This document shows, one piece after another, positions 1-4,990 of a stretch of 4,990 nucleotides of DNA. A program made the position numbers and the translations under genes. The stretch lies in the IMG/VR virus record IMGVR_UViG_2713896773_000012, one strand, 5' to 3'. The notes under the pieces were generated by a model. That model did no database searches and had not been told where the DNA came from. It saw nothing but the letters and a program-made list of their open reading frames with translations. This stretch comes from a virus. Taxonomy: Duplodnaviria; Heunggongvirae; Uroviricota; Caudoviricetes. Each line of letters starts with the position of its first letter. Within the stretch, counting starts at the first letter, position 1.

Positions 1-414
1 CTGCATCAGGCTGTTTTTTGTTTCTTCCGCCTCCCGGATCCGGAACAGTTTTTCTGCTTCCGTATCCTTCACCCAGGCTGTGCCGTTCCACTTCTGAAAC
101 TCCCCTTCCGGGGATAACCAGGTGATATTTTCCGGTAGAGGTCCGAGTTCAGAAATAAATAACGAGTCGCCGGAAGCCACGTCATAGACGTTTTTTCCCC
201 GATGATCTTCAACGAGATGCCACGATGCCTCATCACTGTTGAAAACAGCCACGAAGCCTGCCGGAATATCTGGCGGTGCAATATAGGTACTGTTTGCTGG
301 CAGACCTGTATGAGGCGGAATATATGCGTCACCTTCACCAATAAATTCATTAGTTCCGGCCAGCAGATTATAAATTTTTATGGTCCGTGGTTGTTCACTC
401 ATTCTGAATGCCAT
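1..414 (-). CDS. tfa: Tail fibre assembly protein Tfa (lambda Tfa family); ATG at 414-412, 138 codons in window with no stop, 3' end beyond window start
   Basis: Manual translation of the minus strand from 414 gives [138 protein letters not shown], open to position 1. This matches lambda Tfa as I recall it. Start overlaps the upstream stop (TAATG). Not in the ORF track because no stop lies in the window. Confidence 0.85.
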
Positions 415-713
415 TACGCAAGCCTCACAATATAGTTAAATGCGATGTTTTTGACGGTGTTTTCCGCGTTACCAGCAGCGTTAACGGTGATGGTATGTCC
501 ATGTGAACCAATCGCAACGGAGTGCGTATGAGCACCAATACCGACAGTATGTGCGTGTGCACCTGCGCTTGCAGCAGTACCCGATACAGAGTGCGTATGA
601 GCGCCTGCAGAAGAAGTGTTAACACTGTATTTAGAATAATCAGGTGATCCACTTCCCGGAGCACCACTGGAACCACCTGAAACAAATGTCATCGAATGGG
701 TATGTGCACCGGC
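414..713 (-). pseudogene. Side tail fibre protein Stf, C-terminal remnant (about 100 codons) lacking its N-terminal part
   Basis: ORF-track protein 414..722 ends ...[31 protein letters not shown], the characteristic lambda Stf C-terminus, and carries (G/A)AHxHS repeats. It has no upstream Stf body: the sequence 5' of about 713 is J-derived in another frame. Boundary is approximate (about 10 bp). Confidence 0.75.
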
Positions 714-1026
714 TGTCCCCATGCATTTACCGCCCGGACTGTCAGCCTGTAATTTCCCAGCGCCAGCTGCGTGAAGCGATATGTGGTTTCCGTCGTCCGG
801 GCCGTGCTGACCAACCGCTCACTGCCGTCGTCCGCTGCCACGGTCAGGCGAAGCATAAAGCTCACCCCCTTCACCACCTTCGGCGTGTCCCAGCGCGCCA
901 GCACCTGGTATTCCCCGCTGTCTGCGGTGACTTCTGCGGTCAGGTGCTGAACTGCTGGCGGCGTGACACCATTCACCGTGCCGCTCTGGTCACCGTCAAA
1001 GTGCGCCCCGTTATCAGTTCATCCAG
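714..1026 (-). pseudogene. Host specificity protein J (central tail fibre), internal fragment of about 105 codons, no start or native stop
   Basis: Minus-strand translation reads ...[101 protein letters not shown], matching an internal stretch of lambda J. It is flanked by nu1 sequence upstream and Stf sequence downstream. Confidence 0.75.
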
Positions 1027-1518
1027 CGCGGCTGCTTTGTTCATGGCTTTGATGATATCCCGTTTCAGGAAATCAACATGTCGGTTTTCCAGTTCCGGAA
1101 AACGCCGCTGCACCGACAGGGGGATCCCGTCGAGAATACTGGCAATTTCACCTGCGATCCGCGACAGCACGAAAGTACAGAATGCGGTTTCCACCACTTC
1201 AGCGGAGTCTCTGGCATTTTTCAGCTCCTGTGCGTCGGCCTGCGCACGCGTAAGTCGATGGCGTTCGTACTCAATAGTCCCTGGCTGGAGATCTGTCTCG
1301 CTGGCCTGCCGCAGTTCTTCAACTTCCCGGCGCAGCTTTTCGTTCTCAATTTCAGCATCCCTTTCGGCATACCATTTTATGACGGCGGCAGAATCATAAA
1401 GCACCTCATTACCCTTGCCACCGCCTCGCAGAACGGGCATTCCCTGTTCCTGCCAGTTCTGAATGGTACGGATACTCGCACCGAAAATGTCAGCCAGCTG
1501 CTTTTTGTTGACTTCCAT
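973..1518 (-). CDS. nohA: Terminase small subunit Nu1 homologue (cryptic prophage Noh type); residues 1-169 Nu1-like, last 12 residues (TGRTLTVTRAAR) from out-of-frame J sequence
   Basis: ORF-track 181-aa protein MEVNKKQLADIFGASIRTIQNWQEQGMPVLRGGGKGNEVLYDSAAVIKWYAERDAEIENEKLRREVEELRQ... is near-identical to lambda Nu1 up to ...KAAALDELI, then diverges. The start lies about 190 bp downstream of cosN, as in lambda. Symbol nohA rests on Qin-like neighbours (ynfO, ydfO, gnsB, cspI); nohD/nohB of DLP12 cannot be excluded. Confidence 0.88.
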   Translation of the reverse strand: MEVNKKQLADIFGASIRTIQNWQEQGMPVLRGGGKGNEVLYDSAAVIKWYAERDAEIENEKLRREVEELRQASETDLQPGTIEYERHRLTRAQADAQELKNARDSAEVVETAFCTFVLSRIAGEIASILDGIPLSVQRRFPELENRHVDFLKRDIIKAMNKAAALDELITGRTLTVTRAAR

Positions 1519-1529
1519 TGTTCATTCCA

Positions 1530-1740
1530 CGGACAAAAACAGAGAAAGGAAACGACAAAGGCCAAAAAGCCCGCTTTCAGCACCTGTCGTTTCCTTTCTT
1601 TTCAGGGGGTATTTTAAATAAAAACATTAAGTTACGACGAAGAAGAACGGAAACACCTTAAACCGGAAAATTTTCATAAATAGCGAAAACCCGCGAGGTC
1701 GCCGCCCCGTAACCTGTCGGATCACCGGAAAGGACCCGTA
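1530..1740 (-). other. Lambda-type cos site: cosB (R1/R2/R3 gpNu1 sites and IHF site I1, about 1535-1660), cosN (12-nt cohesive end 1696-1707), cosQ region (about 1720-1740 by analogy)
   Basis: Reverse complement of 1696-1713 is GTTACG/GGGCGGCGACCT, the lambda right-end/left-end junction with the 12-nt cohesive end. Minus-strand sequence downstream reads CGCGGGTTTTCGCTATTTATGAAAATTTTCCGG... with repeated CGTTTCC(G/T)TTCT-type R elements and an A/T-rich IHF-like segment before the nu1 ATG. 1714-1906 matches the terminal 190 bp of lambda's right end as I recall it. Confidence 0.8.
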
Positions 1741-1906
1741 AAGTGATAATGATTATCATCTACATATCACAACGTGCGTGGAGGCCATCAAACCACGTCA
1801 AATAATCAATTATGACGCAGGTATCGTATTAATTGATCTGCATCAACTTAACGTAAAAACAACTTCAGACAATACAAATCAGCGACACTGAATACGGGGC
1901 AACCTC

Positions 1907-2140
1907 ATGTCAACGAAGAACAGAACCCGCAGAACAACAACCCGCAACATCCGCTTTCCTAACCAAATGATTGAACAAATTAACATCGCTCTTGAGCAAA
2001 AAGGGTCCGGGAATTTCTCAGCCTGGGTCATTGAAGCCTGCCGCCGGAGACTGTGCTCAGAAAAAAGAGTTTCTTCTGAAGCAAACAAAGAAAAGAGTGA
2101 CATTACTGAATTGCTCAGAAAACAGGTCAGACCAGATTGA
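1907..2140 (+). CDS. ynfO: Small Arc/Mnt-like ribbon-helix-helix DNA-binding protein (YnfO/YlcI-type prophage protein), 77 aa
   Basis: ORF-track 77-aa protein. The segment TRNIRFPNQMIEQINIALEQKGSGNFSAWVIEACRRRL fits the RHH pattern (beta-strand RNIRFP, helix A, G-x-S/N turn, helix B) and parallels P22 Arc (FNLRWP...ENGRSVNSEIYQRV). Symbol is assigned by position between nohA-like and ydfO-like, not by remembered sequence. Confidence 0.6.
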   Translation: MSTKNRTRRTTTRNIRFPNQMIEQINIALEQKGSGNFSAWVIEACRRRLCSEKRVSSEANKEKSDITELLRKQVRPD

Positions 2141-2197
2141 AGCAATTTAGATAATCGTGCAGACTACGCCCCCTCATATCACATGGAAGGTTTATCT

Positions 2198-2608
2198 ATG
2201 GATCAGGTAGTCATTTTTAAACAAATATTTGATAAAGTTCGAAACGATTTAAACTATCAATGGTTTTATTCTGAGCTAAAACGTCACAATGTCTCACATT
2301 ACATTTACTATTTAGCCACAGAGAATGTTCATATTGTATTAAAAAATGATAATACAGTGTTATTAAAGGGCCTAAAAAACATTGTGTCTGTCAAATTTTC
2401 AAAGGATAGGCATCTTATAGAAACGACCTCTAATAAGCTGAAATCCAGAGAGATCACATTTCAGGAATACAGAAGAAACCTTGCTAAAGCAGGAGTTTTT
2501 CGGTGGGTTACAAATATCCACGAACAAAAAAGATATTACTATACCTTTGATAATTCATTACTATTTACTGAAAGCATCCAGAAAACTACACAGATCTTAC
2601 CACGCTAA
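2198..2608 (+). CDS. ydfO: DUF1398-family prophage protein (YdfO/YbcV-like), 136 aa from the second ATG
   Basis: ORF-track ORF 2183..2608. The internal ATG at 2198 is preceded by GGAAGG (2185-2190) at 7-nt spacing, giving 136 aa ([30 protein letters not shown]...). Recognised as the YdfO/YbcV family; very AT-rich coding sequence. Confidence 0.75.
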
Positions 2609-2616
2609 ACCATAAC

Positions 2617-2645
2617 GTCCGGCTTCTCTCACTCCTGAGCCGGAC
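2617..2645 (+). terminator. GC-rich stem-loop just after the ydfO stop; candidate terminator with a poor U-tract
   Basis: Perfect 8-bp inverted repeat GTCCGGCT (2617-2624) / AGCCGGAC (2638-2645) with a 13-nt loop. The following sequence CTGCATTGGTTTAAT is only weakly T-rich. Confidence 0.35.
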
Positions 2646-2711
2646 TGCATTGGTTTAATAAAAACCATCAACAATTGTGATTTAGATATTCGGAACCATT
2701 CAAATATAACA

Positions 2712-2733
2712 AAACCCCGTAAAAACGAGGTTT
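2712..2733 (-). terminator. Rho-independent terminator downstream of gnsB (minus strand)
   Basis: Minus-strand RNA reads CCUCG-UUUUUA-CGGGG followed by UUUUGUUAUAUUU (5-bp stem including one G-U pair, then a U-tract). It lies 27 bp past the gnsB stop. On the plus strand the same stem has a C-A mismatch, so it is oriented for the minus strand. Confidence 0.55.
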
Positions 2734-2759
2734 ATGGATAAATTTTATTATTGAATACA

Positions 2760-2933
2760 TCAGATTAAATTAATCTTGACATCATAGCTTTCAAGACCCG
2801 TCATTTTTTCCCGTGCGGTAAACTGAATACTGGTAACTTCTTTCCCGGTCTTTTTCTTAAGTTCAATAATTTTTTTTGTTATATATTCAGAAATATCTGC
2901 TTCTGCTTTTGTTTTTAAGTTTTCAATATTCAT
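2760..2933 (-). CDS. gnsB: GnsA/GnsB-family small protein, 57 aa
   Basis: Manual minus-strand translation gives MNIENLKTKAEADISEYITKKIIELKKKTGKEVTSIQFTAREKMTGLESYDVKINLI, which carries the GnsA/GnsB signature (TGKEV...FTAREKMTGLESYDVKI). AGAGGA Shine-Dalgarno lies 4 nt upstream of the ATG at 2933. Below the length cut-off of the ORF track. Confidence 0.8.
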   Translation of the reverse strand: MNIENLKTKAEADISEYITKKIIELKKKTGKEVTSIQFTAREKMTGLESYDVKINLI

Positions 2934-2981
2934 CATTTCCTCTTTTAGTCTGTTATGACTTTCCAGTTACACAGTAAGTCG

Positions 2982-2987
2982 ATTATA
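2982..2987 (-). promoter_or_regulatory. Candidate sigma70 -10 hexamer (TATAAT) for gnsB
   Basis: Minus-strand sequence ...CTTATCTTTTACACGTTTGCACCATATAATCGACTTACTG... has a consensus TATAAT about 48 nt upstream of the gnsB ATG. The -35 region is weak (TTATCT/TTTACA with suboptimal spacing). Pattern-based only. Confidence 0.3.
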
Positions 2988-3104
2988 TGGTGCAAACGTG
3001 TAAAAGATAAGATGAAACATCGCAATAATCAACATACGATAGTCTAAATTTTACACAAACAGACAAAGAGAATTTTCCTGAATTATCAATGCAATAGCAT
3101 CAAA

Positions 3105-3335
3105 TCAACTCAAGAGCCTTATTGCTGCTTCCAGAATTTCTTCTGAAGTAACATGTCGATCCGCGGCTACATAAATGACTTTATGATCTCCGGTCAGAGA
3201 TGGAAACCCTGCGGCCATTACAGTAAGGTGTGTTTTTTCGCCATTTGGATATTCACGCATGATGGTGTTAACTCCAGTCATCGCTGGCACTACCACTGCT
3301 GGTTCAGAGTTAAAAAAAACTATGATTTTTTTCAT
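3105..3335 (-). CDS. ynfN: Small protein of the YnfN/YmcE family (76 aa from ATG 3335; alternative 51-aa product from ATG 3260)
   Basis: ORF-track ORF 3105..3377 begins at a non-ATG codon; the first ATG (3335) gives MKKIIVFFNSEPAVVVPAMTGVNTIMREYPNGEKTHLTVMAAGFPSLTGDHKVIYVAADRHVTSEEILEAAIRLLS. The internal ATG at 3260 has GGAG 11 nt upstream and gives 51 aa, the length I recall for K-12 YnfN. Position between gnsB and cspI mirrors the chromosomal gnsA-ymcE-cspG arrangement. Confidence 0.55.
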   Translation of the reverse strand: MKKIIVFFNSEPAVVVPAMTGVNTIMREYPNGEKTHLTVMAAGFPSLTGDHKVIYVAADRHVTSEEILEAAIRLLS

Positions 3336-3377
3336 GATGTTACCGTAGTATGTGAGTATCCATCGAATAGACACCAA

Positions 3378-3403
3378 GCAAAAAAGCTCCCGAAGGAGCC
3401 TTC
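3378..3403 (-). terminator. Strong Rho-independent terminator (minus strand) with a C(UUCG)G tetraloop, between the cspI remnant and ynfN
   Basis: Minus-strand RNA reads AAGGCUCC-UUCG-GGAGCUUUUUUGC: a stem of 7-8 bp (one G-U), a UUCG loop closed by C-G, then six U. Confidence 0.6.
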
Positions 3404-3606
3404 ATTTTCACTTTTTTAAATCCAACGACAGACGGCTGGCATTTAAGTATTGTGAAATATTATCAAATGTAATCATCATTGATTTACAAAAGATACATTT
3501 TGCCCCGAAAGGATTCATGTCAGAAACATCAAAAGATGATGTTCTATACTGGGAACCATGACAACACGGGCATCTAAAGTGAATATGGTTTGTAATATTG
3601 TCTACC

Positions 3607-3732
3607 TCAAAGCGCCACTACATGAACAGCGGCAGGACCTTTAGGTCCGTTCTCAATACCAAATTCAACTTCCTGATTCTCAGTTAATGTTTTGAAATCG
3701 TTGCTCTGAATTGCTGAGAAATGGACAAACAC
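3607..3732 (-). pseudogene. cspI: Cold-shock protein CspI, 3' remnant (codons 30-70 plus stop); 5' part displaced or removed by IS3
   Basis: Manual minus-strand translation from 3732 gives [41 protein letters not shown], the C-terminal two-thirds of a CspA-family protein (RNP2 motif VFVHF present, RNP1 KGFGFI absent). The reading frame runs directly into the IS3 right inverted repeat at 3733. Confidence 0.8.
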
Positions 3733-3771
3733 TGATCCTACCCACGTAATATGGACACAGGCCTAAGCGAG
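3733..3771. repeat. IS3 terminal inverted repeat at the orfB-proximal end (IRR)
   Basis: Begins TGATCC...; pairs with the 4952-4990 repeat. The orfB stop (3763-3765) lies inside it. Confidence 0.85.
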
Positions 3772-4629
3772 GTTCTTGTTTTCAAATTGTTCCGGACTGA
3801 GGCCGCCACACCAACTGTGCCGCCGCCACCGATTGTAATCACATTCGATATAATTAAACACCGTTGCCCGCATTATTTCCCGGCTGATAAAGTGTTCTCC
3901 ATGGATACATTCCACTTTCAGCGAATGAAAGAAGCTTTCCACGCAGGCATTATCGTAGCAGCAACCTTTTGCGCTCATACTTCCACGCAGATTATGCCGC
4001 TTCAGTTGCGCCTGATAATCTGCTGAACAGTACTGGCCTCCACGGTCCGTGTGAACGATAACGTTCCGGGGCCTCTTACGCCGCCACAGCGCCATCTGCA
4101 GGGCATCGCAGGCCAGTTGCGCCGTCATGCGTGGCGACATTGACCAGCCAATAACGGCACGTGACCACAGGTCAATGACCACTGCCAGATACAGCCAGCC
4201 TTCATCTGTACGTAAGTACGTGATGTCTCCTGCCCACTTCTGGTTCGGGCCACTGGCGTAAAAATCCTGCTCCAACAGATTTTCTGACACAGGCAGGCCG
4301 TGTGCGCGGTAGCTGACCGGGCTGAACTTCCGGGAGGCCTTTGCCCTCAGTCCCTGACGGCGCAGGCTTGCCGCCACGGTTTTTACGTTAAAGGGGTAAC
4401 CCTGAGCACGCAGTTCATCCGTCAGGCGTGGGGCACCGTAACGCTGTTTTGACCGGGTAAAAGCCGCGAGGACAACGCTGTCGCAGTGTTGGCGGAACTG
4501 CTGACGCGTGCTTATCCTTGTCCGCCGCTGACACCACGTATACCAGCCGCTGCGGGCCACCCGGAGCACGCGGCACATTGCTTTGATGCTGAACTCAGCC
4601 TGATGTTTTTCAATAAAGACATACTTCAT
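3763..4629 (-). CDS. insF: IS3 transposase OrfB (InsF), 288 aa, DDE catalytic domain; expressed mainly as an OrfAB fusion by -1 frameshifting
   Basis: ORF-track 288-aa protein [36 protein letters not shown]... with DDE context motifs ([29 protein letters not shown]). The ATG overlaps the orfA stop (ATGA) in the -1 frame. Confidence 0.95.
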
Positions 4630-4925
4630 TTCAGGCGCTTCGCGAAGTATGTCGCGGCCTTTTGGAGGATAGCCAGCTCTTCATCCCGTTCTGCCAGCTG
4701 GCGTTTGAGACGTGCAATCTCGGTAGACATCTCCAGTTCACGTTCAGAAGACGTCTGCTGATTTTGCTGTTTACTGCGCCAGTTGTAGAGTTGTGATTCA
4801 TACAGGCTGAGTTCACGGGCTGCGGCAGTAACACCGATGCGTTCAGCAAGCTTCAGGGCTTCACTGCGAAATTCAGGCGAATGCTGTTTACGGGGTTTTT
4901 TACTGGTTGATACTGTTTTTGTCAT
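4626..4925 (-). CDS. insE: IS3 transposase OrfA (InsE), 99 aa, helix-turn-helix/leucine-zipper subunit
   Basis: ORF-track protein (MTH)[102 protein letters not shown] at 4925 is preceded by GAGGTGA; the track start at 4934 is a GTG. Confidence 0.93.
4669..4673 (-). other. Programmed -1 ribosomal frameshift slippery site (A-AAG) for the OrfAB transposase
   Basis: Minus-strand sequence CTC CAA AAG GCC (L-Q-K-A in the orfA frame) contains A AAA G, 43-47 nt upstream of the orfA stop. The IS3 family is known to use an A-AAG shift followed by downstream structure. Confidence 0.6.
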
Positions 4926-4951
4926 GTGAGTCACCTCTGACTGAGAGTTTA

Positions 4952-4990
4952 CTCACTTAGCCGCGTGTCCACTATTGCTGGGTAAGATCA
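4952..4990. repeat. IS3 terminal inverted repeat at the orfA-proximal end (IRL)
   Basis: Reverse complement reads TGATCTTACCCAGCAATAGTGGACACGCGGCTAAGTGAG, an imperfect match to 3733-3771. Confidence 0.85.

Follow-up and report, generated by a model that had tools for sequence, protein, structure and literature searches.

The nohA-J locus at the right end of Qin

We analyzed a 4,990-nucleotide stretch of DNA (hereafter the window, with position 1 as its first letter) that is catalogued in IMG/VR as a virus of the class Caudoviricetes (record IMGVR_UViG_2713896773_000012), focusing on the place where nohA, a homologue of the lambda terminase small-subunit gene nu1, runs into an internal piece of the tail-tip gene J. 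Open reading frames (ORFs) and BLAST matches identify the window as the right end of Qin, a cryptic lambdoid prophage of Escherichia coli: the gene order is that of Qin, pinQ-tfaQ-stf'-nohA-cos-ynfO-ydfO-gnsB-ynfN-cspI, at the chromosome's ydfJ/ydfK side, and the annotated Qin region of strain P377 is collinear with window 1-3732 at 99.5% identity. The features at and around the joint, all on the minus strand, are as follows.

414..708, minus strand: C-terminal remnant of stf (side-tail-fibre gene), with a second deletion joint to J' at ~706-712
709..1015, minus strand: J' fragment, lambda J nt 17302-17608 (codons 600-701), 91.9% identical to lambda
973..1518, minus strand: nohA ORF (nu1 homologue), 181 residues, annotated nohA (WP_000453589.1) in P377
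1006..1015, minus strand: joint decamer GATAACGGGG (CCCCGTTATC on the plus strand), the overlap of the nu1 and J homologies
1006..1011, minus strand: ACGGGG, with the J allele, A, at the mismatched position 1011 and CGGGG common to both parents
1012..1015, minus strand: GATA, the only possible crossover interval, equivalent to lambda nu1 694-697 and comprising the last nu1-derived bases; recurrent breakpoint position
1696..1707, minus strand: 12-base cohesive-end sequence of cosN (reverse complement GGGCGGCGACCT), read from the sequence; lambda 8 aligns at window 1700

The nohA ORF comprises Nu1 residues 1-169 followed by an out-of-frame, J-derived tail of 12 codons, TGRTLTVTRAAR, and a stop, such that its C-terminal end reads AALDELITGRTLTVTRAAR. 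cosB lies between cosN and nohA, and the J' fragment is annotated in P377 as a J-related pseudogene.

A near-perfect 10-base repeat at the joint

An earlier note, made from the letters alone, had proposed that nu1 and J were fused within a decamer common to both genes, and had given the two parental versions. Comparison of the minus strand with lambda by BLAST recovered two homology blocks—cos plus nu1 (window 1700..1006, lambda 8..703, 98.1% identity) and J (window 1015..709, lambda 17302..17608, 91.9%)—that overlap by exactly 10 bases, window 1006-1015, so that the nu1-J junction is real. A three-way alignment, which could equally have placed the homology boundaries elsewhere or found no common decamer, returned GATACCGGGG at lambda nu1 694-703 and GATAACGGGG at lambda J 17302-17311, just as the note had them, with 9 of 10 bases matching; outside the decamer, base-by-base alignment shows the other parent to be unrelated on both sides. 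The predicted frame switch is likewise present in the ORF at 973-1518: the Nu1 frame passes from ...AALDELI directly into TGRTLTVTRAAR and a stop, while the J frame reads DNGAHFDG from window 1015. Two coordinates needed correction, however. The decamer had been placed at 1017-1026, 11 bases away from its actual position though inside the span that had been marked for the junction, and the J breakpoint falls at codon 600 rather than at about 640-660.

The single mismatch, at window 1011, carries the base of J, so that the exchange must have taken place within GATA (window 1012-1015), and nu1-derived sequence ends at lambda A697. The parental blocks lie collinearly on the same lambda strand, the DNA between them is missing from the window, and one hybrid copy of the decamer is left at 1006-1015. 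A match of 9/10 or better is reached by only ~6e-5 of the nu1 x J decamer pairs in lambda, and the probability that a random nu1 x J joint falls in such register is ~6e-4, indicating that microhomology at the joint is not a matter of chance. In absolute number, such pairs are nonetheless common (110).

At the joint, nu1 and J sequence meet directly, with no insertion sequence (IS) end, evident recombinase site, or filler DNA. No IS terminal inverted repeat abuts it, as would be expected for an IS-mediated adjacent deletion, and the sole IS in the window (an IS3 copy, 3736-4990) lies 2.7 kb away and represents a separate event. Homologous recombination by RecA or Red, which needs homology over tens to hundreds of bases, can be rejected, given that only 9 of 10 bases are homologous and the flanks are unrelated. 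By eye, there was no convincing resemblance to an attP core or to the gix, hix, or cix consensus; the partner sites described below resemble only nu1's own CTGATA, with a constant TA at the crossover. By its sequence, then, the joint is an illegitimate, short-homology deletion scar, the class to which the earlier note had assigned it, and presumably of the RecA-independent kind. In E. coli, short-homology illegitimate recombination encompasses slipped mispairing at short direct repeats, RecA-independent deletion, and alternative end-joining; like the products of these processes, the window joint involves a short imperfect direct repeat of which one copy is kept, with no filler and no mobile-element end. 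Taken alone, it is an ordinary scar of prophage decay, of a known type, and its main use is to mark lineages among Qin variants.

Sister Qin architectures and the size of the deletion

Since lambda matches the J fragment at only 92% identity, we sought closer relatives. The window-type joint was found in 52 to 89 of 5,426 complete E. coli genomes (about 1-1.6%) and is identical in at least 52; all window-type matches listed have an annotated nohA beside a remnant of J or of a tail-protein gene. The joint is therefore lineage-specific and not an ancient feature of Qin, settling a choice that the earlier note had left between the two, and the Qin prophage of K-12 carries a different joint.

Four deletion architectures occur within a single Qin sub-lineage whose members differ by 0-2 single-nucleotide polymorphisms (SNPs) per 3.4 kb: the window type and those of strains VG48B2, F829, and FDAARGOS_1337. 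VG48B2 has the same Qin, the same stf remnant, and the same J'/stf' joint as the window, and, over window 286-3732, differs from it by one SNP in addition to the base at the joint. Its region between nohA and J' still has an intact nu1 plus three further pieces, ordered lambda 1-956, 13434-13575, 16534-17608, and the 1,155 bp of intervening DNA missing from the window are present. Both decamers are thus found in cis, 1,165 bp apart—the nu1 version, GATACCGGGG, at position 6740 and the J version, GATAACGGGG, at position 5575 of the minus strand of its locus (L007)—which confirms the microhomology in the true lineage and not just in lambda. A third copy, GATAACGG, lies in J between the two. In F829, the closest relative (0 differences over window 286-1015 and 1008-3732), nu1-697 is joined to J at ~16723, the joint reads CTGATA/ACGGCTGG (here and below, a slash marks the joint), and perfect 8-bp GATAACGG repeats lie 579 bp apart; this type was found in one genome only. 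In FDAARGOS_1337, nu1-699 is joined to J 16135. The VG48B2 and FDAARGOS_1337 types each keep DNA missing from the other, so that a much fuller ancestor must have existed recently in the sub-lineage; the deletions are young and independent. A VG48B2-type ancestor of all can be ruled out, as the J sequence retained in FDAARGOS_1337 is longer, starting at 16135. Different joints are found in K-12 and LR-58-1, members of a separate Qin sub-lineage, that of LR-58-1 connecting nu1 697 to J 17229.

Accordingly, the window joint could have been reached by three routes: from a fuller ancestor, with the loss of up to 16.6 kb; from a form like that of VG48B2 or FDAARGOS_1337 (~1.2 kb); or from an F829-like form (579 bp, between perfect 8-mers). 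The first would be one event in a full-length Qin, removing 16,608 bp (lambda 694/698 to 17301/17305) with the end of nu1, A, the head and tail genes, and J up to codon 599, and resolving within the decamer. This corresponds to the deletion of A through the first half of J that the earlier note had envisaged, a description that holds only relative to lambda, which the joint matches exactly; a single 16.6-kb event is not thereby established, given the shorter sister precursors, in which other joints have already removed most of A through J. The fuller recent ancestor implied by VG48B2 and FDAARGOS_1337, neither of which can be derived from the other, is consistent with such an event, as are the many other joints at the same nu1 position that span 2-22 kb of lambda coordinates. 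Yet precursors with near-identical flanks hold the repeats only 1,165 bp and 579 bp apart, the frequency of short-repeat deletion drops steeply with distance between repeats, and 110 equal or better nu1 x J repeats, including perfect 10- and 11-mers, went unused, and we regard the one-step route as unlikely.

Equally doubtful, in our estimation, is a two-step route in which the GATA of nu1 would first have been joined to an upstream J site (CCGGATAACGGCTGGG in J of the Qin lineage), giving the F829 form, after which slipped mispairing between the GATAACGG repeats would have deleted 579 bp. F829 is the closest relative and has exactly the repeats required, there would be no mismatch to resolve, and the nu1 end common to F829 and the window would be explained. 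On the other hand, the F829 type is known from that single genome, and the upstream site in the real Qin J itself reads GATAACGG, which weakens the shared nu1 end as proof of this order of events: independent deletions from a common precursor explain that end equally well, especially as the nu1 breakpoint is recurrent. We consider it most likely that the precursor was an already shortened Qin with repeats 0.6-1.2 kb apart rather than a full-length prophage, because F829 matches the window in all shared sequence outside a patch in tfaQ (98-285) and because short-repeat deletions fall off with distance.

A recurrent, one-sided breakpoint in nu1

The earlier note had the deletion resolve within the decamer, but the decamer is not enough to explain where the deletion ends in nu1. 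Unused nu1 x J repeats better than the decamer include perfect 10- and 11-mers (nu1 513/J 15866, nu1 232/J 17226, nu1 703/J 15570), while in every nu1-J joint that we met the nu1 end lies within a few bases of one position. Examples read as follows.

LR-58-1: CTGATA/TCCGTG
PCP07083: CTGAT/GCCGACG
AH21: CTGATACC/TGACC
E. coli B (DLP12) and FDAARGOS_1337: CTGATACC/CGAAC
GENOMIC22-004: CTGATA/AAGCGC, at a different locus and into a tail-fibre gene

Given the 110 pairs matching at 9/10 or better, and the reuse of the same nu1 bases by joints with matches of only 2 bases, repeat quality and proximity alone fail to explain the breakpoint. The PCP07083 joint (nu1 ~696, J 17192; L051 973-3270) lies within a 766-residue ORF annotated as a tail-tip domain protein, which is an in-frame Nu1-J fusion.

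For a broader sample of joints, we searched the window's NohA against a collection of 5.8 billion proteins and mapped where each match departs from intact Nu1, considering residues 137-181, the range in which all joints (residue 137 or later) should score above the cut-off of the match list and hence be sampled without positional bias. In this range, 32 of 48 distinct Nu1 fusion joints fell in codons 169-170 (p ~6e-32). Their partners extend across the lambda map—A (748, 2176), B (2993, 3025, 4240), C, E (6276, 6411, 6856), FI, U, V, K, I (15016, 15275), J and lom (several sites each), stf, and tfa—and include some non-lambda DNA. Many of the Lom, U, E, B, and V fusions are also in frame, which probably reflects detection bias. 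We read the DNA behind 11 of the census proteins, nine of which break at the recurrent position: eight of these joints read ...GAACTGATA/partner, and the ninth, a second joint to B, reads ...CTGATACC/CGTGGC. The breaks in the remaining proteins, P0105 and P0118, fall in minor clusters elsewhere in nu1. Such clusters, with 3-4 partners each, occur after Nu1 residues 140 (RRF/), 144 (LE/), and 165 (AAL/), at lambda nu1 nt 609-610, 622-626, and 685 (window ~1099-1100, 1083-1087, and 1024); counting the recurrent position, there are four clusters, of which two are found 3 bases past a GAACTG motif (614, 689) and two immediately ahead of CCGG (611, 698).

Pattern scans of IMG/VR added further joint types (A 2248, A 2489, Z/U 8065, J 15808, J 17971, another lom site, and two with partners of no recognized identity), such that at least 40 different partners share a nu1 end at nt 694-699 in lambdoid prophages of E. 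coli. At the DNA level, the joints read CTGATA/N or CTGATACC/N, the latter forming a minority class at C699. Where a partner also resembles nu1 to the left of the joint (E 6277 and B 3026, ACTG-G-TA against ACTG-A-TA in nu1), the mismatch keeps the base of nu1, and where the resemblance extends to the right (GATA-A-CGG against GATA-C-CGG), it keeps the base of the partner, which places the crossover always at T696-A697. Five of about 46 partners continue with ACGG after GATA (p ~1e-6), a subset that contains the window decamer, so that extended similarity does influence the choice of partner. The partner sites themselves are dispersed, so the unevenness is specific to nu1 rather than general to these deletions.

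Retention was also one-sided. In IMG/VR, 18 loci keep the cos-nu1 (left) side, and none of five pattern scans there recovered a joint retaining the side toward A (of the form X/CCGGGG... or X/GGGG...), all 62 matches being synonymous or point variants of intact nu1. A scan of contigs from one genome per species, intended as an unbiased sample of breakpoints, proved uninformative, as 25 of 33 matches to a 29-base nu1 pattern (L009-L041) were lambda DNA in assemblies of unrelated bacteria. These 25 came from Marinifilum, Bradyrhizobium, Paenibacillus, Shewanella, and others, some on contigs of ~48.5 kb, and are almost certainly laboratory contamination.

Two of the nine loci read as DNA extend the range of partners. 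In one (L048 1501-3499), Nu1 residues 1-169 continue in frame into the last 116 residues of a tyrosine integrase, with alpA and then a TIR-domain gene beyond it, an element resembling a defence island that abuts the recurrent breakpoint. In the other (L054 1201-2700), an 82%-identical nu1 homologue is broken at the same position, GAAATGATA/ACGG, and joined to inverted lysozyme and holin genes, implying that the rearrangement there was not a simple deletion.

Together, these observations lead us to favor, if only modestly, the view that nt 694-699 (...GAACTGATA/CC) of the lambda-type terminase small-subunit gene are a polar hot spot of illegitimate recombination in enterobacterial lambdoid prophages, at which a DNA end would form repeatedly, the cos-nu1 side always being kept and joined, by way of 2-8 similar bases, to virtually any DNA, downstream or foreign. 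The window joint would be one of at least 40 independent products; fork arrest, a site-specific nick, and topoisomerase cleavage are candidate causes, perhaps reinforced by selection for a truncated NohA. With the nu1 side of the joint falling on a recurrent, polar breakpoint, the locus is of far more interest than a single junction would be: dozens of independent deletions across E. coli begin within these few bases of nu1, all of them proceeding in one direction. If the cause is a site-specific break or fork arrest, prophage decay (domestication) would be partly programmed by sequence rather than random, and the site would offer a natural, easily assayed model of polar illegitimate recombination; if selection is involved, it would imply a function for the C-terminally truncated Nu1 (NohA), which many genomes keep intact beside cos.

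Candidate causes of the breakpoint

Several candidate causes were checked and rejected. For a secondary cosN-like terminase site, the best 16-mer in nu1 690-710 matched at 10/16, the modal value of random lambda windows. A Chi or Chi-like stop for RecBCD has no counterpart, as the nu1 of the window contains no Chi and the nearest similar sequence, GCTGGATG (lambda 682), differs from Chi at 2 positions. The folding of lambda 640-770 is no more stable than that of shuffled sequences (z = 0.49), arguing against a hairpin or cruciform, and a pseudo-transposon end would lack an inverted-repeat partner in the window. By eye, the site did not match the ends of IS1, IS3, or IS10.

A fixed, protected end combined with a variable one, 2-8 bases of similarity, strict polarity, and occasional foreign or inverted partners are the pattern reported at deletion hot spots associated with replication arrest or topoisomerases. 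Compared with Ter-arrest and strong topoisomerase-site hot spots, nu1 likewise has one end fixed within a few nucleotides and the other variable, microhomology of 2-8 bases, and polarity; unlike at those sites, no Ter-like sequence or known cleavage site was recognized at nu1 694-699. The pattern also fits a site-specific break with a protected left end. Classical short-repeat models, for their part, predict breakpoints from the quality and proximity of repeats, whereas the nu1 breakpoint is reused regardless of either and with one polarity only.

A more specific proposal is that an event at nu1 696-699—a nick or break made by an enzyme, cleavage by a topoisomerase or gyrase, or polar arrest of replication or transcription—made the nu1 end, and that the decamer only biased the choice of partner. 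The 40 or more distinct partners with one nu1 end, the crossover pinned at T696-A697 both for partners with extra similarity on the left (ACTG.TA, as at E 6277 and B 3026) and for those with it on the right (GATA.CGG), the strictly one-sided retention, the foreign or inverted DNA among the partners, and the use of the same position by the 82%-identical homologue all speak for it. No factor was found, however, in the searches for cosN similarity, Chi, stable hairpins, and IS-like inverted repeats just described, and selection for a particular truncated NohA may contribute to the same pattern; we therefore hold this proposal as a tentative one, of appreciable but lesser probability than the hot spot itself. 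In REL606, nu1 to A runs toward increasing coordinates at 0.55 Mb and would thus be co-directional with replication, assuming that the record has the standard K-12-like orientation; this direction would suit a leading-strand 3' end that stalls at A697 but is no proof of one.

As to selection, all joints at the recurrent position keep Nu1 residues 1-169 beside cos and lose the last 12 residues, which we take to be part of the gpA-binding C-terminal region. Selection for truncated NohA may add to the effect, though on its own it would not pin the joint to one dinucleotide. In the full-text literature, we found no description of this joint or of a breakpoint hot spot in nu1; work on nohA, nohB, and nohD, on illegitimate recombination of Nu1, and on prophage deletion hot spots yielded only FNR and Fur sites and the exchange between lambda and DLP12 treated below.

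Proposed origin of the window joint

The parental nu1 and J had an imperfect direct repeat in common (GATACCGGGG and GATAACGGGG, respectively), and a short-homology deletion at window 1006-1015 fused nu1 (nohA) to an internal piece of J. Strand exchange occurred in the 4-base GATA block, with all sequence 3' of nu1 A697 coming from J, and the product is the 181-residue NohA, composed of Nu1 1-169 and a 12-residue out-of-frame tail. The repeat probably helped choose the partner site in J, whereas the nu1 breakpoint appears to have been set by something other than the repeat; the recurrent, one-sided breakpoint suggests that a DNA 3' end or break may repeatedly form at ...CTGATA and then be joined to partners with 2-8 bases of similarity.

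As a whole, this reading—a short-homology nu1-J deletion in Qin, from a shortened precursor, with the nu1 end set at a recurrent breakpoint—seems to us probable, though several points weigh against it. An origin from the full-length prophage needs the same number of events as one from a VG48B2-, FDAARGOS_1337-, or F829-like form, and the SNP differences (0-2 per 3.4 kb) do not suffice to arrange the architectures in time or to name the precursor. The census proteins are clustered at 90% identity, such that joints with short tails are under-counted. Those causes of the recurrent breakpoint that could be tested (hairpin, Chi, cosN-like site, inverted-repeat partner) came out negative or at background, and sequence alone cannot separate replication slippage, end joining, and template switching.

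Joints in K-12 Qin and DLP12

The nohA-stfQ' region of K-12 lies in the same prophage and at the same locus, and its nu1 is likewise truncated near the 3' end and fused to a remnant of a tail gene. It keeps nu1 to lambda ~719-721 (GAGTGAATATA/ACCGCGCTGACAG), however, and is joined straight to stf without a J fragment, giving a NohA of 189 residues; this Qin belongs to a different sub-lineage with many SNPs, and the K-12 and window joints are independent events. In DLP12 of E. coli B (REL606) and relatives, nu1 is also fused to an internal part of J, through a 4-base microhomology (TACC), and ends at lambda 699, 2 bases from the breakpoint of the window. The DLP12 joint differs in its prophage locus, in its J site (16135), and in that J runs on to its natural end.

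The joint CTGATACC/CGAACACGG (nu1 699, J 16135) is identical in REL606, where it lies in DLP12 (L008), and in FDAARGOS_1337, where it lies in Qin (L053). Its presence at two loci implies either transfer from one prophage to another through homologous exchange or two separate origins. Homologous recombination has been shown to swap cos-nu1 DNA between lambda and DLP12, the nu1 of DLP12 being functional (PMC3945230), and exchange of this type could explain the joint in both prophages.

By extension, the window joint might itself have been imported from another lambdoid prophage through homologous recombination or gene conversion, a possibility raised by the joint common to DLP12 and Qin and by the readiness with which lambda exchanges this DNA. 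We think this very unlikely: each of the window-type matches listed places nohA next to a J or tail-protein remnant, the flanks are 100% identical to those of the sister Qin architectures, and import would only mean that the formation of the joint had to be explained at some other locus.

Other features of the window

The remaining features of the window are as follows.

1..413, minus strand: tfaQ, tail fibre assembly gene, running off the left end of the window (BLAST and P377 annotation)
1907-2140, plus strand: ynfO
2183-2608, plus strand: ydfO
2760-2936, minus strand: gnsB
Between gnsB and cspI in the Qin gene order: ynfN
3607-3732, minus strand: truncated cspI
3736-4990: IS3 copy, reaching the end of the window

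At the second deletion joint (window 694-722, with the joint at ~706-712), J homology ends at lambda 17608 (window 709) and passes directly into the C-terminal remnant of stf. This J'/stf' joint is common to P377, F829, VG48B2, and FDAARGOS_1337 and does not occur in K-12 or LR-58-1; no intact stf parent of it was found. In tfaQ, 15 clustered substitutions at window 98-285 set the window apart from F829, VG48B2, FDAARGOS_1337, and P377, all of which show only 0-2 further differences from it over 3.4 kb, and look like a short recombination patch.

At the other end, the IS3 copy adjoins the 5'-truncated cspI, and the window ends exactly at the IS3 terminal repeat. In P377, IS3 lies beside cspB, cspI is intact, and rzpQ-rrrQ-ydfR-essD-ynfU lie in between, indicating that the strain of the window has an IS3-adjacent deletion of ~2.8 kb. 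The cspI-IS3 arrangement of the window was found in one piece in no complete genome of the collection.

Finally, ATTAATTGATCTGCATCAACTTAA at window 1828-1851 is the reverse complement of the FNR site upstream of nohA/nohB, a site located by chromatin immunoprecipitation on microarrays (PMC1802558). Strong clusters of Fur sites have likewise been described upstream of nohA and nohB (PMC2189734).

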